This document shows positions 6,903-35,744 of a DNA stretch of 35,744 bases, one piece after another. Within the stretch, counting starts at the first letter, position 1. Each line of letters starts with the position of its first letter. Source of the DNA: Candidatus Coatesbacteria bacterium (GTDB lineage Bacteria; JAFGND01); assembly GCA_016927185.1 (NCBI GenBank), contig JAFGND010000067.1, forward strand, positions 1 through 35,744. The letters run 5' to 3'. The notes under the pieces were generated by a model. That model ran no database searches. It worked only from the letters and a program-made list of their open reading frames with translations, and had not been told where the DNA came from. Made by a program: the position numbers and the translations under genes.

Positions 6903-7303
6903 TTTCAGCCATTCATCTTATGGAAGTTAAAAACAGTGGCTTTTGTTTTTCAGAATATCACCTTGAATCAGCTGCAATTAAGTCAAGGATTTTAGACAGG
7001 TCTTTCCAGTTAGAAGATCGCTTTGCAAAATGATAATGTGCTATCTCAGTTTCTTTCTGCCTTAATCCATTCCATCATATTCAAAGCCTTTCAATCTGTC
7101 TTTCCAGTATTCATTATCATTAAGCACTGCCTGATTATGATGATCATGCAAAAAATAAGTACTCATGACTTCACATCATTCACAAATATGATTGATTGCT
7201 GCATCCTGCTTTATTATTTCATAATACTGCATGATTTTCAACTTTCCTCTTGTCTTTTTAACAAGGCATAAAGGAACTGTTCTTGTCAAATGAAAGGAAA
7301 TTC

Positions 7304-9949
7304 ATGAATATTATCGGGATCAAGGCACTTCAGGGAGCCAATTACTATTTCGAGGAGCCTGTAATAATGATGACACTGGATATAGGTGAATGGTGCAGAT
7401 ATAACAGTTCTGATTTCAAGGAATTCACTCTTAAACTAAAGGAAATGCTGCCAACACTATCCGAACATCATTGCAGTGAGGGAATGAAGGGAGGATTGCT
7501 TGCAAGGATAGATGAGGGAACCGGATTCGCTCATATAATAGAACATGTGGCAATAGAACTTCAGAATATGGCTGGCATAGAGGTTGGTGCAGGAAAAACA
7601 AGAATTCATGAAGAACCTTCCATTTTTCACGTTGTCTATAGATATATTGATGATGAGTCAGGCATTTATGCAGGCAAAAAAGCTGTTTATATTGTGGAGT
7701 ATATACTTCATAGCCTTGAAAATATGCCTGAAGGAATTGAACGCAAGATAATTGAAAAACCTGATTTAGAAACGATTATAAATGAGATAACAGAGATAAA
7801 AGAGGAATTCACTTTAGGTCCTTCTACATCTGCAATAGTTGCTGAAGCAAAAAGGAGCGGAATCCCTGTGATCAGACTGGACAAAAAATCGCTTGTCCAG
7901 CTCGGTGCAGGCAAGTTCGCAAGAAGAATAAGGGCTACTGCTACTGACATGACGAATATAATCGCAGTGGATACTGCAGAGATACCATCGCTTGTGCAAT
8001 CAATTCTGGATAAGTCTGGGATACCCATTATTCAGACGAGAGTTACAGAAAATGTTGATGAGGCAATAAAAATAGCAGAAACCATAGGCTTCCCGCTTGT
8101 TGTAAAACCATATCTGGGACAGAAAGGAAAGGGAATAACACTTAATGTAAGAAATGAGGAGGAGCTTAAGAGTGCATATTACAGGGCAAGAAGCTTTACT
8201 GAGCTTGTGATTTTGGAGGAATACATAGAAGGATTTACTTACAGGTTTCTTGTGATAAACGGGAAAACTGCTGCTGTTGCAAGAAGAACACCTGCTTCCG
8301 TAATAGGAGATGGAGAACATACAATCTCTCAGCTTGCTGATATTGAAAACAAGAATCCCAGACGCGGAAGTGGTGACAAACCTCTTGGCAAGATAGTACT
8401 TGATAACGAGTCTGATTTCCTTTTGAAATCAAGAGGTTACAGGACTGACACAATACTGAAACAGGGAGAACAGGTATCACTTCAGATAAGCTGTTCACCT
8501 GCATTGGGAGGTTATTCTGTTGATGTTACCAAAATGGTTCATCAATCTAATTGCTATTTCGTTGAACGTGCGGTAAAAATTGTTGGACTGGACATTGCAG
8601 GTGTTGATGTTGTTGCACCTTCAATCAGGGAATTCTTCAAGGAAACTGGAGGAAAAATACTGGGGGTCTCAACTTCTCCTGACTTCAGACCTCACATCAA
8701 TCCAGCAGAAGGACAGGGCAAGAATGTAGCAAAATCTGTCATAGATATGCTTTTCCCTGAAGGCAGTAATGCATGGATCCCGCTTATTGCTGTTGCAGGA
8801 ACCTCAGGCAAGACATCTACAAGCCACATGATTACTCATATATTGACAAGTCTCGGAGAAGATGTAGGACTTGCATCTTCAGAGGGAATTTTCATGGGAA
8901 CAACGAAGATAAAAGAGGGAGACAGCTCTAATGCTAATGGTGCACAGACTCTTCTTCGGGATCCAGAGGCAGGTTGTGCTATAATAGAGGTATCCCATGA
9001 GTCAATTGAAGATGAAGGGCTTGGTTATCAGAAAGCTGATGTTTCAGTTCTTCTCAATCTTCATGATGAGTATAATGACAGAAACAGTGAAAGGACAGAA
9101 TATCTCAAGAAGCTTGTCATCAGGCAGACAGAAGATTGGGGAATAGCAGTACTTAATGCAGATGATGACCTTGTAAGCTCTTTCGCGAAAGAGATAAGAA
9201 ATGAGATAATATATTTCTCGTCTAATGAAGATAATCCTGTATTGAAGGAGCATCTTGACAAGGATGGAACACTGGTTTTATACAAAAACGGGGAGATAAT
9301 AGTCAGACAGGGAAATGATTCAACTATCCCGCTTGCAAGGATATACGAGCTCCCCTTCACGCATTCGGGGAAAGCCTCATGGCAGATATACAACTCGCTT
9401 GCTGCAGCCGCTTCAGTACTTGCACTTGGAAGGATAAGCGAGGGGAGATACAAGACTGGAAAAGGAAGAGTCTGGAAGCCTGCAGATCTTCATTTCGGAA
9501 TGGTTAGCTTCTATCCTTCAATAAATGATATCCCGGGTCTTTTAAACTATCTCAAGATAGACGGGCTTGAGATATTTTTTGACAGGGCAATAACAGAAAT
9601 TTCAATGGAATATGTTTTCAATTTCATATCAAGACAATTCACAAAGAACAAGATGCTTCTCGCTCCATTGAAGCCTCAAATCAACAGCAGTTTTATAGAC
9701 AGCATTTCAAGAAAAGCTGTTTTGTTGTTTGATAGAATTCTGCTTTTTGGAGATATAGAAGAAAGCGAATGGTATACATCGCTTTACGAAAAAAACTCAT
9801 CTAAAATTACTGTATACAAGAAAGAACAGGATGCTCTTGATGAGATTTCAGGAAAAATAGACAGGGAAGCTCTTATGCTTTATGTTACAGATAATCCGCG
9901 TAAATCTGCTGTCTTGCTGCTAAAGCTTCAGGAGAAACTTGGAAGCTAG
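7304..9949 (+). CDS. cphA: Cyanophycin synthetase-like protein (CphA architecture, divergent)
   Basis: N domain (GANY; HCSEG...EGTGFAHIIEHVAIELQ), ATP-grasp (LGPSTSAIV, LVQLG, PLVVKP, GLDIAGVDVV), Mur-ligase-like domain (IAVAGTSGKTST, VLNADD). Several catalytic motifs are altered. ATG at 7304 has an AAAGGA RBS; alternative TTG at 7283. Confidence 0.78.
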   Translation: MNIIGIKALQGANYYFEEPVIMMTLDIGEWCRYNSSDFKEFTLKLKEMLPTLSEHHCSEGMKGGLLARIDEGTGFAHIIEHVAIELQNMAGIEVGAGKTRIHEEPSIFHVVYRYIDDESGIYAGKKAVYIVEYILHSLENMPEGIERKIIEKPDLETIINEITEIKEEFTLGPSTSAIVAEAKRSGIPVIRLDKKSLVQLGAGKFARRIRATATDMTNIIAVDTAEIPSLVQSILDKSGIPIIQTRVTENVDEAIKIAETIGFPLVVKPYLGQKGKGITLNVRNEEELKSAYYRARSFTELVILEEYIEGFTYRFLVINGKTAAVARRTPASVIGDGEHTISQLADIENKNPRRGSGDKPLGKIVLDNESDFLLKSRGYRTDTILKQGEQVSLQISCSPALGGYSVDVTKMVHQSNCYFVERAVKIVGLDIAGVDVVAPSIREFFKETGGKILGVSTSPDFRPHINPAEGQGKNVAKSVIDMLFPEGSNAWIPLIAVAGTSGKTSTSHMITHILTSLGEDVGLASSEGIFMGTTKIKEGDSSNANGAQTLLRDPEAGCAIIEVSHESIEDEGLGYQKADVSVLLNLHDEYNDRNSERTEYLKKLVIRQTEDWGIAVLNADDDLVSSFAKEIRNEIIYFSSNEDNPVLKEHLDKDGTLVLYKNGEIIVRQGNDSTIPLARIYELPFTHSGKASWQIYNSLAAAASVLALGRISEGRYKTGKGRVWKPADLHFGMVSFYPSINDIPGLLNYLKIDGLEIFFDRAITEISMEYVFNFISRQFTKNKMLLAPLKPQINSSFIDSISRKAVLLFDRILLFGDIEESEWYTSLYEKNSSKITVYKKEQDALDEISGKIDREALMLYVTDNPRKSAVLLLKLQEKLGS

Positions 9950-10113
9950 CTTAATGTCTTGACACAAGCCCAGACAAGCTTGCCCTGTCCGAGATATTCG
10001 TCATAGCAATCTTCTTCAGCTTTTGCATAATATGAATAATCAGCGCAGGTAAGAGCAGTTTTCTCGAAAGCTTTTTCGCTTCTTATTACCGGTTTCGTAT
10101 ATCTCTTCAACAT
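9946..10113 (-). CDS. 55-aa putative RiPP precursor peptide MLKRYTKPVIRSEKAFEKTALTCADYSYYAKAEEDCYDEYLGQGKLVWACVKTLS
   Basis: Hand-translated (below the ORF-track cutoff). AAGGAG RBS, YxKPxI leader motif, three Cys, paralog at 35487-35650. Stop codon overlaps the cphA stop (CTAG, 9946-9949). Confidence 0.82.
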   Translation of the reverse strand: MLKRYTKPVIRSEKAFEKTALTCADYSYYAKAEEDCYDEYLGQGKLVWACVKTLS

Positions 10114-10179: not shown

Positions 10180-11199
10180 TCATTTCAGGAATTCCCTTCC
10201 TTCCAGCATTCTTTTTCTTCTTGTGAAAGCATGGAAAACACCTCTAATTCCACCATAAATGAATGCGAAATTCCTTGCAATCTGCATAAGCATTGCAAAT
10301 AACGGGAATATTATGCCTTTTTCTCTTTTTATCCAGAATATGAAATAACTGATATTCAAAATGAAATATGCAAGAAACGGTATGAATGCCAGTTTTGGTA
10401 AAAACACTATCAGCATTATGAATGATGGAATAAGAAGCATCGTCATAAGAAGATTGAGGGCAACCTCAGGCATATTTATATCCTTTGTCTTCATGACCTT
10501 GTCCCTGGGGAAAAGCAGTGATATTATCGCTCTTGAAGTGCCCCTTCTTGCCTTCTGTATCATGAGGTCTCTGAAATTCGTCCTGTCTATATGCGGCATT
10601 CTGCTTTCCTCGAAAACCTTTATCCTGTGCTTTCTGGTTATCTCAAGTGACATCAACGTATCATCACCGCTTGCAATTCCCTGCATTATTATGGACTCAG
10701 GAGCCTTTCTGTCCAGAAGCACATCTTTCCAGTAAATGCAGTTACCTGTTGCAAGAACCGAAGCATCCCTTATCTGATTCTTGAACCAGAGGTAGAACTG
10801 GTCTCCTATTGCGAATCGGTTTATGCAGTTTTTCATGTCATATGGTTCATAAATACCGCCAACTCCACCATAATCTCTGCTGAGCTTACTCACAAGAAAT
10901 GAAAGCCAGTCAGGATGAGGTACACAATCTGAATCAGTGAATGCAATTATCTCCCCATTTGCATTCCTTGCTCCTTCCTGTCTTGCCTCTGCAGGACCTC
11001 TGTTTTCAGGCATCTTGATGTATCTTGCATTATAATTCTGGACAATTTCTAAAGAATTATCCTTCGAGCAGTCATCCACAACAATAACTTCGAATTCTGG
11101 ATAATCTTGCTTGAAAACTGCATCAAGACACAGTTTCATTGTCTTCTCTGCATTATACATCGGAATTACAATTGAAACCAGAGCCGGTTTTTCAGGCAT
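10180..11199 (-). CDS. GT2-family glycosyltransferase with C-terminal membrane helices
   Basis: VSIVIPMYN, VVDDCSKD, NRGPAEAR, AFTDSDC DxD motif; hydrophobic C-terminus; 8-bp overlap with the rSAM stop. Confidence 0.92.
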   Translation of the reverse strand: MPEKPALVSIVIPMYNAEKTMKLCLDAVFKQDYPEFEVIVVDDCSKDNSLEIVQNYNARYIKMPENRGPAEARQEGARNANGEIIAFTDSDCVPHPDWLSFLVSKLSRDYGGVGGIYEPYDMKNCINRFAIGDQFYLWFKNQIRDASVLATGNCIYWKDVLLDRKAPESIIMQGIASGDDTLMSLEITRKHRIKVFEESRMPHIDRTNFRDLMIQKARRGTSRAIISLLFPRDKVMKTKDINMPEVALNLLMTMLLIPSFIMLIVFLPKLAFIPFLAYFILNISYFIFWIKREKGIIFPLFAMLMQIARNFAFIYGGIRGVFHAFTRRKRMLEGREFLK

Positions 11200-12271
11200 T
11201 GAAATATTCCCTGTAGACAGGTTTCAATAGTCTCTTATAAAGTTTCGGATTCATGAGAACATTTGCAAAAATAGCGCATTCCCACGAACATGGAGGGCAA
11301 TATCCCTTCTTTATCCTGTCTGAAATCCCCTGAGCCTGTTCGCTTTGAAGCAGCTTCCCGAGATCCATGTCATAATCCTTCAAGTTTCCCATTTCCGGTG
11401 GACGAAGTTCACAAGGAAGAACAGCCCCGTTCTCCCTTATTATTATCATTTTCTCTCCGCAGACGCATGGGATAGCCATTTTGTTTGCTTCCCTGCTTTC
11501 TGCAACAATTTTTGTATTGAGACTGTACATTGCCCTGATTACTCCTGAAAATGGTTTTCTCTCCTTCGGTTTTCTCTTCTTCAAGAGATAATCAACTGCA
11601 GCAAGGTATTCGTGCACAGAAACATCAGCTACTTCTGGTGTCCTGCTATCCAGCCTTGCAAGAGCGATATTGTGGTTATCTGGCTTGAAGTCCTTGTCAA
11701 CAGCATCAATAATTTTCTCCATCTTGTGCTTGTTGCTGCTTGTCATTGCAGTTGTTATATCAAGAGAGAACCTTGGATACTTTATCTGCATTGTTCGCAG
11801 GTCTCTGAACAGCATGAACAAATCCTCATAGAGATTTGGAATACCCCGAAGTTCGTCATGATCCGTTCCCACTCCATCCACTGAAAACTGGAATTTTATG
11901 AAGATATTCTTTCTCTTTTTCACCATTTTCTCTATATTATCGAACATCCTGTCTCTTAAAGTGCCATTTGTAGGAATTACAAACAGTCTAGTGCCTGACA
12001 ATTTATGGAATGCAGAAACTATTTCAGGCAGATCATTTCTAAGGAATGGTTCTCCCCCGGTAAGGGTGACATACTGGAAATACTTGTATTTGCTGCACAT
12101 CTGCTCTATCTGGGAAAGATTGAGTTCTTCTTCACCATTATTGAGTCTGTTCCAGTAAAAGCAGTGATGGCATCTTGCATTGCAGCGCGAGGTTACGAAG
12201 AATATCAGATATGAGACATTCTTCGTGAAAAGCGCATTATGTATAAATTTTGTCCTGTCTATAAAGTTCAT
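11192..12271 (-). CDS. Radical SAM protein with SPASM/twitch-type C-terminal Cys domain
   Basis: CNARCHHC, LTGGEPFLR, TNG, SVDG; C-terminal CVCG...GAVLPC...CPPCSWEC. Confidence 0.9.
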   Translation of the reverse strand: MNFIDRTKFIHNALFTKNVSYLIFFVTSRCNARCHHCFYWNRLNNGEEELNLSQIEQMCSKYKYFQYVTLTGGEPFLRNDLPEIVSAFHKLSGTRLFVIPTNGTLRDRMFDNIEKMVKKRKNIFIKFQFSVDGVGTDHDELRGIPNLYEDLFMLFRDLRTMQIKYPRFSLDITTAMTSSNKHKMEKIIDAVDKDFKPDNHNIALARLDSRTPEVADVSVHEYLAAVDYLLKKRKPKERKPFSGVIRAMYSLNTKIVAESREANKMAIPCVCGEKMIIIRENGAVLPCELRPPEMGNLKDYDMDLGKLLQSEQAQGISDRIKKGYCPPCSWECAIFANVLMNPKLYKRLLKPVYREYFNA

Positions 12272-32984: not shown

Positions 32985-33900
32985 TGAGGAAGAAATAATA
33001 CATAGCTGCGGCTTGCCCGTAAGGCAAGTCAAAGTGCTTAAGGAATTCAAGGCTTTCATGAATCTGGAAAGGGGAATGAGCAAGCTAACAACTGAAGCTT
33101 ATTTGAGAGATGTAATCAGATTTTTGAAACCCTTGAAAAAGGACTTGTCATCTGTAAAACCAGAAGAACTGGAGAAGTACATACATTTCCTGTATGATCT
33201 AGAGCTGGCAGCAAGTTCCATAAACAGGAACATCTCCTCGCTGAAATCCTTTTTCAAATTCCTTGTAGAAGAGGATCTACTGACAAACAATCCTTCAGCA
33301 AATCTTAAAGGACCAAAACTGCCTGAAAAACTGCCTCATGTACTGAGTATAGAGGAAATGCAACGCTTGCTTGAGATACCTGACATGAAGCAGATAACAG
33401 GAAGGCGTGACAGGGTTATGCTTGAAACTGCATATGCATGCGGATTGAGGGTAACAGAACTCATCAGCCTGGGAACAGATAACCTGTGGCTTGATGAAGG
33501 TTTCATTAGAATTGTAGGAAAAGGCTCAAAGGAAAGACTGGTTCCAATTGGAGATGAGCCAAAAGAGCTTCTTGCTGAATTTATATTAAGAGACAAGCCT
33601 TTGCTTCAGAAGGATCTTGCAAGCAAGAGAATATTCTTTAATGCACATGGCAGGGAGATTACAAGATTTGGATTCTGGAGAATACTGAAATCTTACATCA
33701 ACAAGGCGTCTCTTCCGGCAGAAACTTCTCCTCACACTCTCAGGCATTCATTTGCTACGCATCTCCTCGAGGGAGGAGCTGATCTGCGTGCAGTGCAGGA
33801 GATGCTAGGACATAGCGATATAGGAACAACACAGATATACACACATATAGATAAGGAATATATACGTGCAGAATACAAGGCATACCATCCAAGAGCTTGA
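32977..33900 (+). CDS. xerD: Site-specific tyrosine recombinase XerD
   Basis: RDRVMLETAYACGLRVTEL, GKGSKERLVP, SPHTLRHSFATHLLEGGADLRAVQEMLGH, TTQIYTH, YHPRA. Confidence 0.93.
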   Translation: MINEEEIIHSCGLPVRQVKVLKEFKAFMNLERGMSKLTTEAYLRDVIRFLKPLKKDLSSVKPEELEKYIHFLYDLELAASSINRNISSLKSFFKFLVEEDLLTNNPSANLKGPKLPEKLPHVLSIEEMQRLLEIPDMKQITGRRDRVMLETAYACGLRVTELISLGTDNLWLDEGFIRIVGKGSKERLVPIGDEPKELLAEFILRDKPLLQKDLASKRIFFNAHGREITRFGFWRILKSYINKASLPAETSPHTLRHSFATHLLEGGADLRAVQEMLGHSDIGTTQIYTHIDKEYIRAEYKAYHPRA

Positions 33901-34726
33901 AAATAAAACTGACCTGATTTATCTAATTCTGCCTCGTTCTTTGAAGGAGCTGACAAGGACAGCAGTGTTTCTTGTTATTGCGTTTTCAGCTTCTTTCCTG
34001 ACATATTATTTTTCTACAGGACTGGTTCATGAATTGTCAGTTATTGTAGATTACAACAGGACAATCAGAAGCAAGATGGATGAATCCTCCATAATATTAA
34101 TGCTTCTTGAAAGACTGAAAAGCAGGCAGATGATATCCGAACTTCCTGCAGAGATGAAAATAAATGAAAACAATATAATGAGTTATATTGGCTGGGAGAT
34201 AATGGAAAGAGATGAAAACAGCACGAAACTCAAGCTGAAAATTATTACAAAGGACAGGAATTTTATAGAAAGAAACGGCAAGCAAATAATAGAAAAGGTT
34301 GTCAGGAATTACAATGAATGGTTCATGTTAAGGCATGAAAGCAGGAAAGCAAGTATTGAGGATCAATATAATGAGATATATTTCAATTATTCTGCAAAGC
34401 TGGAGAATTTTCTTTATCCGCTTCTTGAAAGAAATCCGGGAAGACAGGAATTGCTTGACAGCCTTATACAGAAACAGACTGCAGATTCCAATATAGTGGT
34501 ATTTTTAGCTGATTTTTATAAAAAGCAGCATTTCTATATAAGTTATAACAAAATGCCTGCCGAGGTTTTTTATTACAAGCACAGTGATATAAAGAAAAGA
34601 ATTGCAGGAAAGGGAAGAAAACAGAATATAATAATTCTTCTGACAATAATATTTTCTGCACTCATTTTCAATGGTTTCATGAAATATTTTGATATAAAAA
34701 GAGACAGGGGGAACAGGAATGTATAA
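33866..34726 (+). CDS. Hypothetical membrane protein with N- and C-terminal TM helices (Wzz-like topology)
   Basis: Long ORF with hydrophobic segments AVFLVIAFSASFLTYYF and IIILLTIIFSALIF flanking a soluble region; start uncertain. Confidence 0.6.
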   Translation: MQNTRHTIQELENKTDLIYLILPRSLKELTRTAVFLVIAFSASFLTYYFSTGLVHELSVIVDYNRTIRSKMDESSIILMLLERLKSRQMISELPAEMKINENNIMSYIGWEIMERDENSTKLKLKIITKDRNFIERNGKQIIEKVVRNYNEWFMLRHESRKASIEDQYNEIYFNYSAKLENFLYPLLERNPGRQELLDSLIQKQTADSNIVVFLADFYKKQHFYISYNKMPAEVFYYKHSDIKKRIAGKGRKQNIIILLTIIFSALIFNGFMKYFDIKRDRGNRNV

Positions 34727-35327
34727 ATTAATAGTAATTTTAATGATCATATTGCTAATAGCAGGTTGTGCATCCATATCCAGAGTACATCCAAGGAGAA
34801 TGGATTTGAGGGAATTTTCCATAAATGATACACAAGTTGACAGAGACAGGATACAGCCTTACAGGGAAGATGATTATCCTTTTGATAAAAGGCTTTATAC
34901 AGATGAGAATATAGAGATTTCTTGCTGGACAGATGGAAGACGGTTTCTTTTCTATCTTGAGAACAAGACAAAAAGCGATATTAAATTCACATGGAATGAC
35001 TGGGAGTATCTGGATCCAAAAGACATGTCGCTGAAGGTGATTGGTAATGATGTTCAAAGCAAATCCAAACAGAATCCCGAGACAATTACTGTGCTTTCAG
35101 AGCAGAAAAGGACTTTCTGGTTTGCACCAGTTGTATTCAAGATGGATGAAAAAACCAAGCAGAAAGTGGCAATAGTATATACCAAGGGATTGTTTCTTGA
35201 AGAGGATTATGGCAAGGACATCTTGATAAAAGCTGTATTCACTATTAATGGAGTGATAAGAAATCTAAGATTCAAATACTGGATAGGGGAGGAAACAAGC
35301 ACTCAGGAAAAAAAGGACGATTTTTAA
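34719..35327 (+). CDS. Hypothetical lipoprotein
   Basis: Signal peptide MYKLIVILMIILLIAGC with lipobox IAGC; 8-bp overlap with the upstream ORF. Confidence 0.78.
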   Translation: MYKLIVILMIILLIAGCASISRVHPRRMDLREFSINDTQVDRDRIQPYREDDYPFDKRLYTDENIEISCWTDGRRFLFYLENKTKSDIKFTWNDWEYLDPKDMSLKVIGNDVQSKSKQNPETITVLSEQKRTFWFAPVVFKMDEKTKQKVAIVYTKGLFLEEDYGKDILIKAVFTINGVIRNLRFKYWIGEETSTQEKKDDF

Positions 35328-35486
35328 ATTACTTGGTAACCTCCTTTGTCAATTTTTTAGTGCTTCCATAAAGGAACTTTTGAATATAATTTAAAATTGG
35401 TGAACTACCATGCTTTTCAATCATCTATCTGAAGTAAAATCATTGAATATTAAAAGGAAGTTTGTAGTTTTCCAAAGGAGTAAAAA

Positions 35487-35650
35487 ATGAAATCATACAT
35501 GAAACCAGTAATAATTTCTGAAGCAATTTTAGAAAAGTAGCACTTCTTTGTATTGATTATATATATTATACCAAGGACTATGAAGGTTGCAAAGATGATT
35601 ATTTAGGAAGAGGAAAAGAACACACTATTTGTGCAGAATTATCAAGTTAA
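35487..35650 (+). pseudogene. Frameshifted paralog of the 9946-10113 peptide (pseudogene, sequencing error, or -1 frameshift gene)
   Basis: AAAGGAG RBS; frame 0 reads MKSYMKPVIISEAILEK* (TAG 35538-35540); the -1 frame from 35537 reads VALLCIDYIYYTKDYEGCKDDYLGRGKEHTICAELSS*. The joined 54 aa align without gaps to the first peptide. Confidence 0.8.
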
Positions 35651-35744
35651 TCAGCTTTAGAAACTAAAAAATAAATCAGTATTAACTTCCAGTAGAAAAG
35701 GCTTTTCTTTAGTAGAATTGTTCAATTTTTAACCTCACCCCGTC

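Follow-up and report, generated by a model that had tools for sequence, protein, structure and literature searches.

A frameshifted, probably pseudogenic copy marks an 11-copy family of likely RiPP-type precursor peptides in a Candidatus Coatesbacteria genome

The stretch at positions 35487-35650 of the window raises the question of whether it is a second working gene for the small peptide encoded at 9946-10113 or the remnant of one, and of what kind of peptide family the two would represent. The window analysed is the whole of contig C106 (35,744 nucleotides) of genome G000 (3.0 Mb, 109 contigs, 93% complete); C6, C16 and the other C labels used below, up to C107, are contigs of the same genome. 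A sequence-only reading had described the stretch as a second copy with its own ribosome-binding site and as strong support for the other copy being a real gene. The homologous sequence is real, and a ribosome-binding-site-like GGAG is present at 35477-35480 on the forward strand, 6 bases before the ATG, with the same upstream word in the C16 and C100 copies. The 164 bases are not one open frame, however, so that the stretch supports the other copy as a decayed paralogue and not as a working gene. The ATG at 35487 opens frame 1, and the first piece (35487-35540, forward strand) carries the YxKPxI motif, ends in L-E-K and stops after 17 codons at a TAG (35538-35540). The second piece (35537-35650, forward strand) continues in another frame through 37 core codons to a TAA (35648-35650) and holds the three Cys, the YY, the G-x-G-K and the final Ser. 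No ATG, GTG or TTG was found between the previous stop in that frame and the core, and the open reading frame listing contains none of 45 or more residues at 35487-35650. The peptide first reported here is a reconstruction across the loss of one base. The loss is most parsimoniously placed in a run of four A at 35533-35536 (forward strand) because Glu16, invariant in all 10 intact copies described below, is then kept; the paralogue at C6 509-670 has five A at the same codons.

Read across the break, the flagged copy aligns without gaps to the 9946-10113 peptide with 27 of 54 identities (X at the break), or 28 when Lys is counted at the break as had been done before. Shuffles of that alignment gave a mean of 3.7 and a maximum of 13 identities, and none of 100,000 reached 27. 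Both peptides have the three Cys at the same spacing and four core Tyr, as had been stated. DNA identity is 80% to the C16 copy and 62% to the other window copy, and about 50 bases of 3' flank are held in common with the C90 copy. Promoter and terminator scans around either window copy returned nothing beyond chance. When the flagged copy's in-frame core was used in a word-index protein search, no candidate came up, a result that does not in itself show the absence of an intact orthologue.

The 3' end of the contig falls inside a repeat, and the window stops there. This palindromic repeat, of which the start is seen at 35668-35744 (no strand assigned), is found elsewhere 3' of secretion-tail gene ends. 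Both window ends (35668-35744 and 1-73) carry repeats common to many other contig ends. Two genes 3' of a tyrosine recombinase gene, at 33866-35327, had no Pfam match at E 0.1; the product of one has 286 aa and hydrophobic ends, and that of the other is lipoprotein-like and has 202 aa.

A break in a homopolymer about 200 bases from a contig end could be a sequencing or assembly error in an intact gene, and the 56% of X1, a possible source run, that was examined did not span the break site. Eight sequencing runs from four studies hold parts of the region, and no RNA run is listed among them. Contigs from two of these runs, X2 and X3, which belong to one study independent of X1 and are about 97-98% identical to the window, were compared over 34600-35744. 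The X2 contig (35028-35643) differs by 11 letters with no gaps, and the X3 contig (35180-35739) differs by 19 letters with gaps only at 35665, 35712 and 35725; both span the break, and neither has a base inserted there. An error is therefore scarcely credible: the frameshift is genuine and common to a second strain. In the second strain, the listed changes to the coding sequence comprise 35555 G>A (Asp24Asn, where conservation is 90%), 35570 A>G (Thr29Ala, assigned to the orthologous contig by distance from the contig end, since paralogue contigs show the same letter) and 35621 C>G (His46Asp). All three are non-synonymous, and three listed differences are too few for a test.

A peptide search of G000 recovered 11 copies, two each on C106 and C18 (among them an intact one at C18 31181-31345), three on C6 and one each on C16, C90, C100 and C70; the earlier description of a second copy was right in kind and understated in number. 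Family members are Cys- and Tyr-rich peptides of 54-56 residues. Nine copies are intact with an ATG, the C90 copy has AAG where the ATG is expected, and the flagged copy is frameshifted; the 10 copies counted as intact for conservation and pN/pS are all except the frameshifted one. The family leader reads YxKPxIxSExxFEKTALxC, with Y4, P7, E12, E16, L20 and C22 invariant in 10/10 intact copies, and YxxP is found in these and in the broken copy. The core is as conserved as the leader: C22, Y28, C35, G41, G43, K44 and C49 are invariant, the spacing is fixed at Cys-x12-Cys-x13/15-Cys with a YY motif, and nine of the 10 intact copies end in Ser. Over codons 2-44, pN was below pS in 45/45 pairs of intact copies (median ratio 0.43; the pairs are not independent), and by this codon comparison the family is under purifying selection, as had been suggested for checking. 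The same inequality held over these codons in 10/10 pairs that include the broken copy, which was therefore under constraint during most of its history. Six copies have PQQ-repeat beta-propeller genes next to them, and several lie near contig ends; duplication in the repeat-rich surroundings of secretion-tail beta-propeller genes is the likely route by which copies spread and are lost. On C6 the three tandem copies are followed, 19 bases on, by a P-loop protein gene (L010:1-108) that the contig end truncates.

The simplest reading of the flagged copy itself is that it is likely a pseudogene. Its core has no start codon of its own, and the C90 copy provides a second case of degradation. Databases call an internal ATG for the C90 copy (L004:1489-1653), by which the Tyr of YxKP is lost (record P0030). 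The start, the GGAG and the frameshift are nonetheless all kept in the second strain, which fits a functional short product as well. Such a product would be a 17-residue leader that occupies the RRE and tunes or inhibits the pathway. The comparison comes from the linear polyphosphorylated peptides (LPP; lppA-K-B-S-D-N; Popov et al. 2026, PMC13381572): the flagged copy stops immediately after L-E-K, which aligns, by analogy, with the LPP leader end F-3/E-2/T-1, and in the available text of that article intact and cleaved precursor both co-purified with the RRE. The listed strain differences number none in the first 17 codons and three in the core, although over 51 and 111 bases this is not significant. 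The leader-only form is absent from every other copy, and in the C6 509-670 paralogue, whose longest run is the A stretch at codons 16-17, 8 of 159 single-base deletions give a 17-residue product; the corresponding count is 27 of 159 for the C70 copy and zero for the other seven copies tested. The truncated product thus equals the predicted leader, yet mutation bias at the A-run explains this as well as function does, and retention as a leader-only gene is considered quite improbable.

The break could also be bridged in translation, by programmed -1 frameshifting of ribosomes at GAA-AAG ahead of the UAG, which would restore a low level of full-length precursor. One tRNA-Lys slip from AAG to AAA would yield exactly the read-through peptide, and the break is common to two strains. 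Programmed -1 frameshift genes have a slippery site and a stimulator conserved in homologues. Here the only slippery element is an A_AAG tetramer; no canonical slippery heptamer and no GGAG were found in the 40 bases around the break, and the fold 3' of it is not unusual (-7.4 kcal/mol over 63 nt, against -4.4 to -12.5 for the 10 intact paralogues). G000 encodes both tRNA-Lys(CUU) and tRNA-Lys(UUU), and tRNA-Lys(CUU) damps A_AAG slippage. The reading frame is unbroken in all 10 other copies, three of which share the GAA AAG codons, and the second-strain core carries the Asp24 to Asn change. Programmed frameshifting is accordingly most improbable, and the pseudogene reading is retained.

For the family as a whole, relatives were sought at several depths. 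The intact window copy found only itself in a word-index protein search, and a single peptide matched none of 40 other genomes; a 28-row profile matched six of 400, all over the leader only, the comparison genomes (the 40, and those listed of the 400) being kin to G000 at domain level only. Pattern matches of the 10-copy alignment to metagenome, genome and viral contigs numbered 274, 89 and 153, and none was confirmed. Searching 1.84 billion representatives with a profile yielded 19 matches: 11 full-length short peptides from other records, two leader-only relatives, two own copies and four long proteins, the last left out as proteins of 450-1854 aa matched over short repeated stretches. One match, P0004, differs little from the C70 copy. 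The family thus has homologues in other metagenomes. In three JGI loci of related organisms the peptide lies among unrelated genes, on contigs of only 1.5-1.8 kb.

A DNA pattern for the 19-residue leader, YxxPxhxxExhFExxALxC (h, hydrophobic), designed from the family, was found at no fewer than 124 loci in GTDB genomes, mostly of Acidobacteriota and also of Elusimicrobiota and Armatimonadota; these loci are not independent. The 6-kb flanks of 79 of the matches listed contained a radical SAM gene of the C107 type in 54 cases, an RRE in 42, an HprK-like gene in 38, an S24/S26 peptidase of the C103 type in 33 and NTP_transf_5 in 14. As background, 192 twelve-kb tiles of G000 held these radical SAM, RRE, HprK-like and peptidase genes in 10, one, two and one cases, respectively. 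The two query sets together detected at least three of RRE, radical SAM/SPASM, HprK-like kinase, S24/S26 peptidase and NTP_transf_5 in 52 of 78 flanked loci, and radical SAM/SPASM in 55 of the 78. Ser ends 117 of the 118 distinct foreign peptides among the matches listed, a residue that the pattern did not require. The foreign cores (n = 118 listed) span a median of 18 residues from the first Cys, against 33 in the G000 family; 94 have two Cys and none has YY. Because the cores differ, the chemistry cannot be carried over to the G000 family. When a profile of the foreign leaders was run against 113,859 G000 frames, nine intact copies ranked first and the first piece of the broken copy came next (E 1.7). 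Since the pattern was drawn from the family, this match is partly circular; that objection does not apply to the neighbours or the final Ser.

Among the matches listed, the sole foreign genome locus matched over nearly full length (positions 3-53, E 6e-7) is that of G041, with the gene order kinase, RRE, radical SAM, peptide. After the G041 precursor, a 553-aa frame (L152:7987-9648), by eye a peptidase-domain fusion, had no match to the queries. Precursor and radical SAM cassette lie on separate contigs in both G169 and G323. No description of the radical SAM/kinase/peptidase cassette was found in the literature covered, and a bioinformatic account may exist elsewhere.

G000 contains two RREs and all five enzyme classes, away from the peptide copies. 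In line with the earlier remark that the flagged copy has no adjacent maturase, none of the 11 copies shares a contig with any of the eight cassette genes checked, and processing in trans is, for that reason, what we infer; the multi-copy family of the earlier proposal is confirmed, and its leader is linked to RRE/radical-SAM cassettes elsewhere. One enzyme set is compact: on C107, NTP_transf_5, HprK-like and RRE genes are followed by a radical SAM gene cut by the contig end, and on C50 a SPASM C-terminal piece is followed by a Cys-rich peptide gene and an S24-like peptidase gene. The C107 cassette likely continues on C50, as suggested by the two halves of one SPASM domain on contigs without overlap. 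The C50 peptide (L141:180-380) has 66 residues, seven Cys, a YSKP start and GGAGG upstream, with no Pfam or NCBIfam match. Its leader is different and went unrecognised by the foreign-leader profile even at a threshold of E 20; the compact C107-C50 cassette therefore likely has its own substrate. The C50 peptidase (L141:382-741) is S24-like with Cys at the catalytic Ser position; in the leader-linked loci this position is Ser in 61 of 63 peptidases and Cys in two.

The second set is scattered and comprises an RRE (C21 570-872), a radical SAM protein (C99 14957-16099, downstream of a Wzz-like gene), HprK-like proteins on C38 and C54, NTP_transf_5 on C91 and a peptidase (C103 28699-29268) that scores 38.5 bits against TIGR02228 (cut-off 51.85) and has G-x-S-M-x-P and H-R. 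No candidate precursor was found beside these enzymes. By bit score the leader-linked enzymes favour the scattered set for radical SAM (57/60), kinase (53/54) and peptidase (45/62), the RREs tie at 26 to 26, and NTP_transf_5 favours C107 (13/15). As a test for the cognate set these scores were rejected, since in the control the C99 protein also beat the C107 protein in 20 of 23 loci chosen by C107 itself, whatever the leader; the scores therefore reflect divergence and not leader match. A quick tree (33 rows, hand-chosen from 50 loci enzymes plus others) placed C99 and C107 in one unresolved clade with the leader-linked radical SAMs. The scattered set is favoured by parsimony because it has no precursor of its own, and on that ground it is given an even chance of being, alone, the family's partners. 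The C107-C50 cassette alone is an unlikely partner, and the remainder falls to both sets or others. On C10 (9412-9549, minus strand), a 45-codon frame with a YIKP start, five Cys and no GGAG may be chance or a third leader type. G000 overall has 70 radical SAM and 14 SPASM matches in 3.0 Mb and one tRNA-Sec. A link to SbtM was rejected, as SbtM is described in the available part of PMC9204691 as acting on GGUG selenocysteine peptides of Geobacter.

The window itself offers another pair of enzymes. The intact copy at 9946-10113 (minus strand, 55 aa, GGAG upstream) is convergent with a cyanophycin-synthetase-like gene and lies directly downstream, on the same strand, of genes for a GT2 protein (10180-11199) and a radical SAM/SPASM protein (11192-12271), together spanning 10180-12271. 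The 888-aa cyanophycin-synthetase-like protein (7283-9949) scores 750 and 744 bits, the cut-offs being 877 and 850. That the two upstream enzymes serve as the family's maturases is suggested by their position and by one of the 79 leader-linked loci (L055), which has a radical SAM protein matched to the window enzyme at 125 bits, beside GT2 and NTP_transf_5 genes. The window radical SAM falls outside the clade of leader-linked radical SAMs in the quick tree (support 93), however, and scores below C99 in 57 of 58 comparisons; a phmmer search found no homologue of the window GT2 in the 79 loci. In the JGI locus L155 the peptide is likewise convergent with the end of a cyanophycin-synthetase-like gene, with unrelated genes and neither radical SAM nor GT2 upstream. 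The two enzymes are probably not the maturases sought, and it is very improbable indeed that they act on this family.

Alternatively, the family could consist of small unmodified cysteine proteins, metal-binding or disulphide-bonded, with the leader likeness a relic. The core is as conserved as the leader, in contrast to the prochlorosins, whose scattered precursors have variable cores (as described in the available text of PMC10783134), and the copies share no contig with the eight cassette genes checked. Against this, the invariant leader positions and the final Ser match cassette-linked precursors, and in G000 RRE, kinase-like, peptidase and radical SAM genes are retained at scattered sites, none with a precursor as its neighbour. 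No confident fold came from AlphaFold2 modelling of the peptide (mean pLDDT 54.7, pTM 0.25), which is weak evidence either way. No named family was matched in NCBIfam by nine intact copies or in PHROGs by 10/10 copies. Pfam gave only DUF19 (E 0.025) for one of the two copies scanned, a PDB sequence search a single hit (E 0.27), and the ESM Atlas hits were all below 0.9 and unnamed. An unmodified protein family is thus improbable, and the intact copies are likely RiPP-type precursors modified by enzymes encoded elsewhere, with the flagged copy a likely pseudogene among them.

For the precursor reading, a pathway may be sketched by analogy. A radical SAM/SPASM enzyme would modify the three-Cys, Tyr-rich core. 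Thioether or Tyr cross-links, suggested by SPASM maturases in general, are guesses only for the Cys/Tyr core here. A stand-alone RRE would bind the YxKP motif and present F/L-E-K to the peptidase, and an S24/S26 SpI-like peptidase would cut after F/L-E-K (residue 17), making residues 1-17 the leader, by analogy with LPP in the available text of PMC13381572. An HprK-like kinase may phosphorylate the C-terminal Ser, and an NTP_transf_5 protein may decorate that phosphate, by analogy with pseudomycoidin (available text of PMC6993621). Candidate partners are the RRE on C21, the radical SAM on C99, the kinase-like protein on C38 or C54, the peptidase on C103 and the NTP_transf_5 protein on C91. A bolder joint version, in which a fully disassembled RiPP pathway (ten precursors whose Tyr/Cys core belongs to no described family, with enzymes lone in separate operons) coexists with a compact other-leader cassette while the flagged copy is kept as a leader-only peptide that titrates the RRE, is highly improbable.

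What is new here is the frameshift common to strains, the likely continuation of the C107 cassette on C50 with a different precursor, and the second, scattered enzyme set. The flagged copy is probably an ordinary pseudogene, and its value is as a marker of the precursor family. Because peptides and enzymes are not neighbours, cluster-based mining would miss this family, which may offer ten natural substrates for a widespread radical SAM/kinase/peptidase cassette. With its two RREs and two leader types, G000 would allow a direct test of leader discrimination outside Bacillota.

Among the closest known systems is LPP, for which the available text of PMC13381572 gives the consensus YxxPxVLxHQxIxFETxxS and reports YxxP as essential for RRE binding. 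A YxxP RRE motif followed by an F-E motif is common to both, and the four LPP classes, a stand-alone RRE, a kinase of the HprK-like type, an SpI-like (S24/S26) peptidase and an NTP transferase, are all present in G000; the C103 peptidase has the catalytic Ser and His of the SpI-like type. The LPP consensus itself is not matched: the G000 leader is two residues shorter between YxxP and F-E and carries Lys/Arg in place of Thr-1 and Leu in place of the Ser3 phosphosite. The G000 core is Tyr-rich with three Cys, the precursors and enzymes are unclustered, and leader-linked loci carry radical SAM/SPASM, whereas the words SPASM and rSAM are absent from the main text of PMC13381572. The phosphorylated and phosphoglycosylated lasso peptides paeninodin and pseudomycoidin, as described in the available text of PMC6993621, resemble the family in a YxxP-type leader with an RRE, in an HprK-family kinase acting on a C-terminal Ser such as that of the G000 family, and in an NTP transferase needed for hexose addition. 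They differ in that the G000 cores are Cys-rich, the cassettes contain radical SAM and S24/S26 peptidase genes, and PF13471, the lasso B2 protease, had no match in the 93% complete G000. For the macrolactam cyclase of lasso peptides, G000 has six Asn_synthase matches, none of which shares a contig with a copy or an RRE. The G000 RRE, kinase-like and radical SAM/SPASM proteins weakly match the SynChlorMet models (NCBIfam TIGR04248-TIGR04251) ScmD, ScmC and ScmE, all below cut-off (31.9/100, 21.6/125 and 119.5/400, respectively), and the peptides match no NCBIfam model. Prochlorosins, in the available text of PMC10783134, likewise have many scattered precursor genes, some alone among unrelated genes, but with a lanthipeptide synthetase, a Nif11 leader and highly variable cores where those of G000 are conserved. 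Like the RRE-dependent radical SAM/SPASM RiPPs, the family combines a short precursor bearing a putative RRE-binding leader motif (YxxP) with RRE and radical SAM/SPASM genes in the same genome (two RREs; C99 and C107). Outside LPP, lasso peptides and SynChlorMet by these tests, the family is best called a variant of the RRE-dependent radical SAM peptide systems.
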